From: Escherichia coli
GTDB taxonomy: Bacteria > Pseudomonadota > Gammaproteobacteria > Enterobacterales > Enterobacteriaceae
Direction: 5' to 3' (one strand)
DNA length: 64,000 bases
Assembly (NCBI RefSeq): GCF_013315695.1
Contig: NZ_CP054353.1
Shown here in pieces: positions 1 through 3,000 of this stretch. Within the stretch, counting starts at the first letter, position 1; each line of letters begins with the position of its first letter. Position numbers: made by a program.

Positions 1-3000
1 GCGTTGCCGTCAGAGTAGCGCCTTTAGGAGCATTGACACCGATAAGCGGACTGGACGTGAGTGTTAGTTTTTCATCAATAGCCTCCAGTTGTTTCTCAAG
101 TGAAGCTCCATTCGCTAGGGATGCTTTTACAGTATACGAGCCGTTTCTTTCAGGCGTTATGGTGACCTCGGCTACTCCCTGCGTATTAGTAGAGACCGTA
201 TTCTGGCTGATGATCATTTGCGAGGATGGCGCTGCACTGAATGTCGCGGGTTGATGCGTCACCGGGTTGCCAAACTGGTCGTTAACGTGAGCTTTAACTG
301 CTATGTCTTGTGCGACCATGACCTGACCTTCAGGTATCTCCTGACTGGTAATCGTCGCAGAATTAACATCTACCTTGGCATTCAGTAATCGCGAGATGAC
401 TTCAGTAGGTTTATCTGCCAGAGAGGCTGAAACTGTTTTTAGTCCGACCTCGGTGCTTGTCACAAGAATTTCAGCGAAAACCTGATCATCCGTTTCAACG
501 CTGGTGCTGCTTAGCGTGACGGAGGTTCCGCGGAAATTAACTTTTATACCTTCTACTGGGTTGCCGTTTCCATCAGTCACTGTTGCCTGTAGCCTGGTCA
601 TTCCAATGTTATTGGCGATGAAATTGTCCTCGGTAACGTTAAGATTAACCTGCGCAGTGAGCGTATCCGCAGTAAAGTTCACCACCAACTGCTCACTCTT
701 ACCGCCAACCATCGATGCTGTCGCGGTATGAGCGCCTGCTTTTGTACCTTTCAGCGTGACTTTCGCTTTGCCATCGGCATCAGTAACCGCTTTGTCGCCA
801 TCGCTCAGCGTGAAGTTCGCCTTCACATCTTCCGGTAGAGTAAATGTTACCTCAGTGTTGGCTATCGCATTGCCCTCTGTATCAGCGACGGTGCTGTTAG
901 TGTCGTGAGATCGTTATTGTCGGCAATCACCGGATCCTTCGAGGCTGCCAGCGTGATTTCAGCATTCGTGACGTTCGGCACATAGTTCACTGTTTGTTGC
1001 ATCGAATCGCCATTTTCGAGGGTTGCCGTCACGGGAGTTCTTCAGGCTGAAATCTTCATCCACGCCCAGCGTGATTCTTGCGGTACCGAAGCGGCTTAAC
1101 CAGTCTGTCATTACCCCTGAAGCCTGAGAAGAGGCCCATCCACGTGCTATGTTTGCCGCTTGCTCGCTGTTCATATCTTCGGCGAGCAGAGATCCAATTA
1201 GCTGTGAAGTACTGGCTATCTGTTGCTCAAGGTTGCCACTGCTGTTACCCGGCGGCGGGGTTAAATTTTTTTCACTAACTTGTGCCTGGACATCCAGTTC
1301 ATCACCCGGGCGGACATTACGAACAAACGTACGAAACTGGTTGAGTTTGCGTAACAGGGGGGTATCTATAATTTGTTGCACAGGACAAATATATCTGGCT
1401 TCTGTACAGAGTCTTAAATTTTGACCATAAATAAAACCGTCCCTGTCAAGCATGCATAGTTTATCAAGTAGGTCTCCCACAAACTGCCTGAATTTTATTT
1501 TTCCATTAAAAGTTTGTATCTTCTTAAGTATCACTGGAGACTGGAAATAGACCGATAGTAGGATGTTGCCACTCAAGGCATGACGATAAATATCGCTAGG
1601 AGTAATTTTTTGTTTTATGGCTTTGGTAGTGATCTCAACTGCTTCCGTTATAGTGACCCATGTTGACATATAATGAGTTATAAGCAATGGCTGATATTTT
1701 TTTGACATAATATTATCTCCTTCTACACAACAATTCGTTCCGTTAAGGAAAAAGATTGGTGTCACAAGTATTTATTTATGATTAATCAGAGGGTTTATGA
1801 CAGAGAAAAGGATGTATATTTCTGAGTAAACATGTACAGGCCTATGGGGTGACTATTTAATGAGTAAATGCCGAATGATTTTCGGGGTGATGATTATAAC
1901 TTGAGGAAAAATACCAGCGTGGTTTGAGTAGTGTACCTGAGTGATATTTGTGTTATGTATGCATTGATTGCAGCAGAATAAATATAGTTCAGGCTAGTAT
2001 AGTTTGTGGTAGCTATGAGAATATATAATCTATTTTACCTATAAAATAATTTATATGTATGGGGTTGTTTTTTTAGGTTGTTTGTCTGTGCTTTTATATT
2101 CTGGAGATGTGCCTTGTATATAGGATTGTTTGTTGGTTGTATTTTTTAATGTTGCACTGTTGTGAATTTTTATTTTGATATGATTATTTCTTTAGTATAA
2201 GGAGAGAAAGGAACGAGAAAGTTAAATCTATTTATCCTAATCGCAATTTCATTGTTTAAATAATCACTATGGATTAATATTTTTTGCGACTCTGCTGAGT
2301 TACTGGTTTTAACTAGTGGTGTAAAAGGGATACCTTTTCGGTATCCCTTTTACAATAATCAGAAGAAATCAATTCGCGTATTGATACCGACGGTGCGACC
2401 CATATTGACCTGCGCGACGGCGCTGCTGCCGTTCATGTAGCCATAGGTACGGTAACGACGGTCGAACAGGTTATCGACATAGACGGAAATGTTCATCCGT
2501 TCAGTCGCCTGCCAGCCCAGGCTGCTGTCCAGGGTGGCATAGGTGCCTTGCCGCAACTGGTTGTCGCCATCGAAATAATGCGGCCCGACCAGATTAAGCG
2601 CCAGTCGGGGCATCAGTGCGCCATAGCGCGTATCAATCACGCCGTTCACGCTGCTTCCCGCGCCATAACGTGGTACGAACGGCACCCGGTTACCGTGATA
2701 CAACTCACTGTCATTGGTGAATTCGGAACGGATCACGTTGCCATTGATATCCCATGACCAGCCTGGCGCAAACCGCCACTTCGCTTCAAGCTCAACGCCG
2801 GTGGCGTCGGCTTTACCCGCATTGCTTAATGTCTGCATCCCGACCGGGCCAGAGTAAAGCTGCATGTCTTTGGTGTGGGTATAAAACGTCGCGGCTTGCA
2901 GCGTGACGTCAGCGGTTTCGTAGCGGGTGCCAAGTTCATAGTTGATGGATTTCTCGGCGACGAACGGTTTGGCATCAAGACCCGCAGTAGGCACGATGTT

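Follow-up and report, generated by a model that had tools for sequence, protein, structure and literature searches.

The analysed stretch of DNA, hereafter the window, comprises 64,000 nucleotides (nt) of Escherichia coli contig NZ_CP054353.1 (GCF_013315695.1), and its positions 1..11400 are identical to E. coli strain MSB1_4I. The window opens at the border between the yersiniabactin island, also called the high-pathogenicity island (HPI), and the adhesin gene yeeJ. In minus-strand order come fyuA (2359..4380), an AT-rich block (1356..2358) and then a broken yeeJ (1355..1), with no tRNA-Asn repeat in between. The G+C content is 56.5% in fyuA, 33.1% in the AT-rich block (1,003 bp) and 50.1% in the yeeJ remnant. 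The region is very probably a fixed deletion scar at the fyuA end of the island that encodes no working system, and nothing found in the data contradicts this reading. The features on which it builds are collected in Table 1.

Table 1. Features of the fyuA border, the yeeJ remnant and the attachment repeat in the window
Feature	Position	Strand	Basis or description
fyuA, yersiniabactin receptor gene, last intact gene of the island core	2359..4380	-	673-codon open reading frame (ORF); annotated in identical MSB1_4I; 99.7% identical to copies in integrative and conjugative elements (ICEs)
Hairpin just 3' of the fyuA stop codon, probable intrinsic terminator (predicted function)	2320..2354	-	15-bp stem, minimum free energy -27.4 kcal/mol, z = -6.6 vs shuffles
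AT-rich intergenic DNA (31% G+C), island-derived, from fyuA to the first gene of the ICE mobility module	1709..2358	-	Collinear with L003, L004 and L013
Site of 208 bp extra in ICE-type copies (L003 9427-9634)	2062..2074		Two alignment blocks overlap by 13 bases; near-matching A/C-rich short repeats
ICE-gene stub, codons 1-118 of a 308-codon gene (WP_000039790.1 when intact)	1356..1708	-	Alignment to intact copies
Chimeric 249-codon ORF: 118 ICE codons, 107 yeeJ codons and a 24-codon out-of-frame tail	959..1708	-	RefSeq WP_000039788.1
Junction A, non-homologous in-frame join of ICE codon 118 to yeeJ nt 219 (residue 74 onward)	1355..1356	-	Three-way alignment
yeeJ remnant 1 (K-12 nt 219-550): C-terminal half of LysM, linker, start of beta-domain	1033..1355	-	92.5% identity to K-12; IAT_beta positions 3-64 of 279
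Junction B: yeeJ nt 550, 1 base, nt 4244 (1033, 1032, 1031)	1031..1033	-	Alignment to K-12
yeeJ remnant 2 (K-12 nt 4244-4718) from the region of Big_1 repeats, translates as YeeJ in the frame of yeeJ	558..1031	-	95.2% identity
Lesion C: 1-nt deletion (K-12 nt ~4383), frame returns to that of the chimeric ORF	892..893	-	Alignment to K-12
Lesion D: 30-nt stretch matching both flanks of an in-frame 312-nt deletion	558..587	-	Alignment to K-12
yeeJ remnant 3 (K-12 nt 5031-5590), Big_1 repeats, runs past the window edge	1..557	-	93.4% identity
Sole 17-bp attO copy, 3' end of asnT, left (integrase) end of the island	32679..32695	-	Repeat search of the window

The fyuA border and the yeeJ remnant

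The AT-rich block was found to be collinear with, and 98.5–99.7% identical to, the DNA that follows fyuA in ICE-type yersiniabactin islands (L003, L004, L013), and this alignment runs from fyuA to window position ~1349-1356 and no further. At junction A, the cut end of the ICE gene (...ATACCCCCCTG) is joined at 1356/1355 directly to yeeJ (TTACGCAAACTC...), the two sides sharing at most 1-3 bp. As codon 118 of the ICE gene and nt 219 of yeeJ meet in frame, the product reads ...IIDTPL/LRKLNQF... across the join (marked here by the slash). Compared to K-12, the chromosome has lost the 370-bp asnT-yeeJ spacer together with yeeJ nt 1-218 (codons 1-73). An earlier interpretation made from the window alone, the sequence-only reading, had placed about 1 kb of AT-rich DNA beyond fyuA, in agreement with the measured length and composition. 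It had also proposed that unrelated sequence replaces the first ~125 codons of yeeJ; the replacement is borne out, while the figure is to be revised, since 118 foreign codons stand for 73 yeeJ codons.

The 17-bp attO repeat (CCAGTCAGAGGAGCCAA, a sequence that agrees with Table 1 of PMC2801613) has a single copy in the 64 kb, inside asnT, in a search allowing up to 3 mismatches; no right direct repeat was detected anywhere in the window at this stringency, as the sequence-only reading had stated for the tRNA-Asn 3'-end repeat. The island lies at asnT (tRNA-Asn, 32680-32755), with mtfA and serU (tRNA-Ser(CGA), 33747-33836) on the far side, and the order serU-mtfA-asnT is that of K-12 and agrees with the annotation of the identical MSB1_4I.

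The spacer within the AT-rich block differs between island copies. A 208-bp segment is present in L003, L004, L006 and L008-L010 and missing from the window, L005 and L007, and the 13-base overlap of the two alignment blocks at this site suggests slippage or deletion between short repeats. A search of window positions 1..2600 against Rfam (E<=1) returned no family, and a scan of 900..2500 for promoters and terminators gave fewer promoter-like sites than shuffled sequence.

Three pieces of yeeJ remain, colinear with K-12 YeeJ (b1978; PMC5595812) at 92-95% nucleotide identity and in the same position beside asnT. In contrast to the K-12 protein, the signal peptide, half of the LysM domain, about 215 of the 279 beta-domain positions and about 1,230 codons are gone, and two frameshifts have been introduced. 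YeeJ residues 1-73 are missing, and of the LysM domain (residues 51-99, 49 aa) residues 74-99 are kept, so only the C-terminal half of the domain survives; the Pfam LysM match is sub-threshold. The remnant matches positions 3-64 of IAT_beta (PF11924, 279 positions), compared to 2-279 for K-12 YeeJ, which leaves the barrel incomplete. Most of the barrel was lost at junction B through a deletion of 3,693 nt, and the net change of -3,692 nt is a frameshift. Because the net loss at junction B and lesion C together is a multiple of three, the frame after position 892 is again that of the chimeric ORF, probably by coincidence. A stop at 959-961, within the 140-nt shifted stretch (893-1033), prevents read-through, and the three Big_1 stretches found in the translation of 892..2 are cut off from the ORF by the frameshift and this stop. 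The remnant also carries a 9-nt in-frame gap near 1319.

Lesion D, as judged from the matching flanks, is the loss of one Big_1 repeat through recombination between repeats. Genomes with an annotated yeeJ match the lesion D stretch as two pieces over 452 nt, and the lesion has no clean genome count, as the two pieces get joined in genomes having the extra repeat. The loss of start and export signals, the 3.7-kb and 1-nt deletions and the lost repeat would together mean that no adhesin is made. The two frame changes given in the sequence-only reading correspond to junction B and the 1-nt deletion at 893/892. Its description of a LysM-like segment joined to Ig-like repeats without a beta-barrel is right in outline; more precisely, half a LysM domain and the first ~60 of 279 IAT_beta positions remain. 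Outside the window, ~1.1 kb to the left of position 1 (L001 7891-7911), yeeJ nt 6678-7020 (~343 nt, the C-terminal lectin-like end) and ~110 bp downstream are deleted in the identical MSB1_4I.

The intact form of the ICE gene at junction A has 308 codons in E. coli 675SK2 (L013 1535-2461, WP_000039790.1), from which the stub differs by 3 non-synonymous and 1 synonymous changes. Its protein belongs to a small family (105 representative clusters), the full-length relatives of which align over residues 14-305. No family was assigned in Pfam, NCBIfam or PHROGs, and the best hit of a profile search against PDB sequences had E = 0.51. A confident AlphaFold model showed weak similarity to MerR/excisionase winged-helix domains, and the protein may, from this model, be a regulator of the mobility module. 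RefSeq labels the chimeric ORF (249 aa) 'inverse autotransporter beta domain-containing protein' and the rest of yeeJ a pseudogene.

As a separate observation, the end of an IS3-family insertion sequence (IS) interrupts the ICE gene at codon ~107 in L005 (10323-10350, equivalent to window ~1386) and in L006-L010, ~31 nt before the E. coli breakpoint. One source labels the interrupted product Yersinia pestis. An assignment of the end of L005 to IS100 of Y. pestis was dropped, as a 30-mer from it occurred on 2,133 plasmids, almost all from Escherichia/Shigella, beside an IS3-family transposase ORF.

Distribution of the junctions and origin of the scar

The junctions were counted in 5,426 complete E. 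coli genomes. Of these, 2,044 contained the opening 2,400 bases of the window at >=80% coverage, a recurrence that makes them neither a product of chance nor an artefact. Junction A was present at 100% or near identity in 2,070/5,426 genomes (~38%) and junction B in 2,056/5,426, compared to about 176-189 of the 5,426 (about 3%) for the ICE module. Intermediates were sought with two synthetic queries, one combining junction A with an undeleted yeeJ body and the other combining junction B with an intact asnT-yeeJ 5' end, and each was found in 0/5,426 genomes. Since the two junctions never occur apart, they belong to one haplotype, in which the lesions may have arisen sequentially or simultaneously. 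The sequence-only reading had described the border deletion as followed by further decay: the additional yeeJ lesions are indeed there, while the temporal order it implied finds no intermediate in its favor among these genomes. Its proposal that an HPI border of the truncated E. coli type took away the 5' end of yeeJ fits well, with collinearity to ICE islands up to codon 118, yeeJ from nt 219 onward and a matching description in PMC2606025.

The following history is proposed. A yersiniabactin island that still had its excisionase gene and its right 17-bp repeat, either of ICE type or a Yersinia-type derivative, would have integrated at asnT beside yeeJ. One illegitimate deletion, probably a single ancestral event given the junction shared across strains, would then have taken codon 119 onward of the first gene after fyuA, and with it the excisionase, any transfer genes and the right repeat; this extent of the loss on the island side follows from what the intact islands carry. 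On the chromosomal side, the same deletion would have taken the 370-bp spacer, where the promoter of yeeJ lay, along with codons 1-73 of the gene, which encode the signal peptide and half of LysM. Further yeeJ deletions would have accompanied or followed it. The integrase would have been left with nothing to recombine. With neither right repeat nor excisionase, the island would thus be locked at asnT, and homologous recombination in the flanking DNA would have carried the haplotype of island, scar and broken yeeJ through the species. We infer from the loss of xis and the right repeat that the island cannot excise, given the needs of excision described in PMC6202445.

Several points weigh against this history. 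A single event behind junctions A and B is unproven, their complete linkage alone being seen, and the immobility of the island is deduced from its gene content. What remains does not show whether the ancestral island had a 35-kb ICE module or a short right end of Yersinia type, and the window is without the 208-bp spacer segment found in sampled ICE copies. Furthermore, with no more than 92-95% identity to the remnant, the yeeJ of K-12 does not represent the recipient allele; HPI-negative genomes mostly match the region at 90-95%. Either the deletion arose in an allele divergent from the intact ones that are common, or drift has altered the remnant.

The first alternative is that the recipient had a yeeJ with the internal deletion and a frameshift before the island came, only junction A being caused by the island. 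HPI-negative strains often have a yeeJ cut short by frameshifts (PMC5595812), and as no genome has junction A with an undeleted yeeJ body, the order of the lesions cannot be read from the collection. However, such a pre-decayed allele is unsampled, junction B never being accompanied by the intact asnT-yeeJ 5' end among the 5,426 genomes, and we regard this order of events as rather unlikely.

A deletion made by an insertion sequence (adjacent deletion), in place of simple illegitimate recombination, is improbable. The same ICE gene is cut in other contigs by the IS3-family element mentioned above, upstream of the E. coli breakpoint, and IS elements are present at this end in Yersinia HPIs (PMC2801613); junction A, on the other hand, contains neither IS sequence nor a terminal repeat and is a direct join with 1-3 bp of microhomology.

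The chimeric ORF could also be a new functional gene that keeps the N-terminal domain of the ICE protein and is expressed from that gene's own signals. The fusion is in frame, the stub takes in the region where the 308-aa model is similar to MerR/excisionase winged-helix domains, and the exact chimeric protein is found on at least 1000 contigs, with 249 aa being the length of the majority of the cluster members listed; the Nissle protein differs by one residue. Such conservation is, however, expected anyway from the recent spread of the haplotype. The chimera retains 38% of the ICE protein, although relatives of that protein align over their whole length; its C-terminus is made up of half of a LysM domain, a piece of the barrel and a tail read out of frame, its substitutions relative to the ICE copy are 3 non-synonymous against 1 synonymous (tiny numbers), and no promoter signal above chance was found for it. 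A functional gene is therefore a very improbable outcome; if true, it could be an orphan DNA-binding protein in ~38% of E. coli, acting for example at promoters of the island or its neighbourhood.

Finally, it is hardly credible that yeeJ, a highly repetitive gene, only looks broken through errors of sequencing or assembly, as was shown for upaH in CFT073 and as the YeeJ paper cautions (PMC5595812). More than 2,000 complete genomes, assembled independently, have the identical junctions, junctions A and B join non-repetitive sequence, and RefSeq has the same pseudogene in Nissle and MSB1_4I.

Relation to known yersiniabactin islands

The deletion scar favored here over these alternatives is already known. 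Schubert et al. 2009 (PMC2606025) described the fyuA-border deletion. In that earlier work, all HPIs of the E. coli reference (ECOR) strains except ECOR31 lie at asnT and show a unique deletion of the fyuA border, with loss of the direct repeat and effects on the adjacent backbone; the deletion fixes the island, which spreads by homologous recombination of flanking DNA (PMC2606025). The position of yeeJ beside asnT may explain why the gene is truncated in many strains (Martinez-Gil et al. 2017, PMC5595812), and the pseudogenes bordering the HPI have been drawn as homologous to part of yeeJ (PMC10562709). Added here are the base-level breakpoints, the data on linkage of the lesions and, for the truncated ICE gene, its identity and its full length.

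The window copy shares with the common-type E. coli HPI (PMC2606025) the asnT site, the ybt core from int to fyuA, the border deletion, the loss of the repeat, the damage to the backbone and the occurrence in many strains. Its border structure is no different; in addition, irp1 and irp2 are broken in this copy. In irp1 (7990-17354, minus strand), 127 nt that Nissle has are missing at ~11663-11673, with an 11-nt repeat on the flanks, and a stop codon interrupts the frame at 12678-12680. The frame of irp2 (17442-23549, minus strand) ends at 17970-17972, about 176 codons early. Both are flagged as pseudogenes by RefSeq in the identical MSB1_4I. Although fyuA is intact, the strain probably cannot make yersiniabactin, as far as the reading frames tell.

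The ICE-type islands ICEEc1 (ECOR31) and ICEKp (Klebsiella) have the same fyuA, spacer and first 118 codons of the next gene (98.5-99.7% identity). According to PMC6202445, their layout comprises int, ybt, xis, a virB type IV secretion system (T4SS), the transfer origin oriT, mobBC and cargo, with 17-bp repeats at both ends, and excision requires xis, int and both repeats. In near-identical relatives of the 118-codon stub, fyuA and the same spacer are followed by a longer ORF and then by AlpA, DUF2857, TraR, Hha, a lytic transglycosylase and TrbC/VirB. The 675SK2 ICE (L013) carries AlpA/xis, DUF2857, TraR, the VirB T4SS, MobC, defence cargo and an exact right attO, and the ICE arrangement was seen in 20/20 further places sampled (L014-L033). 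In contrast to these, the window is without the rest of the ICE gene, xis/AlpA, the VirB T4SS, mobBC, cargo and the right repeat, and the ICE copies have the extra 208 bp. The ICE module (xis, VirB-type T4SS, oriT, mobBC) found in L003, L013 and L014-L033 is thus not downstream of fyuA here, where codon 118 leads into yeeJ. The 675SK2 ICE ends beside ldtA-cobTSU, which would correspond to the asnV site, and the ECOR31 island has been reported at asnV (PMC2606025). The defence cargo at the right end of the 675SK2 ICE (L013 21491-32879) comprises a restriction endonuclease, an ABC-three-component system and the effector and reverse transcriptase of a retron Eco8, and a second near-exact attO lies at L013 33141-33157.

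The HPI of Y. pseudotuberculosis/pestis has the same ybt core and integrase type as the window, has lost its conjugation genes and is reported to keep xis (xis/hef; PMC6202445); in the window, neither xis nor the right repeat is present. This Yersinia island retains both repeats. An exact 29-mer of the ICE-gene stub had 0 matches in a search against one genome per species, which thus gave no Yersinia right end for direct alignment.

The scar would account for two known features of E. coli: an island that apparently cannot excise and is passed on only together with its flanking DNA, through homologous recombination, and the absence of the YeeJ biofilm adhesin from HPI-positive (mostly pathogenic) strains. 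As a marker, a single polymerase chain reaction or k-mer over 1356/1355 or 1033/1031 tells the fixed common island from the mobile ICE type. Beyond this breakpoint marker, no new biology is claimed.

Neighbouring features

Near the yeeJ remnant, the homologue of yeeL is an intact glycosyltransferase family 9 gene here and a pseudogene in K-12. On the other side of asnT, a lambdoid prophage adjoins serU (tRNA-Ser CGA) and occupies window ~33900-64000, with tRNA genes of its own at 49368-49618. The window is offset by 21 nt from MSB1_4I somewhere in the prophage, the register being the same through the island, asnT and serU, and the prophage integrase is annotated as frameshifted in MSB1_4I.
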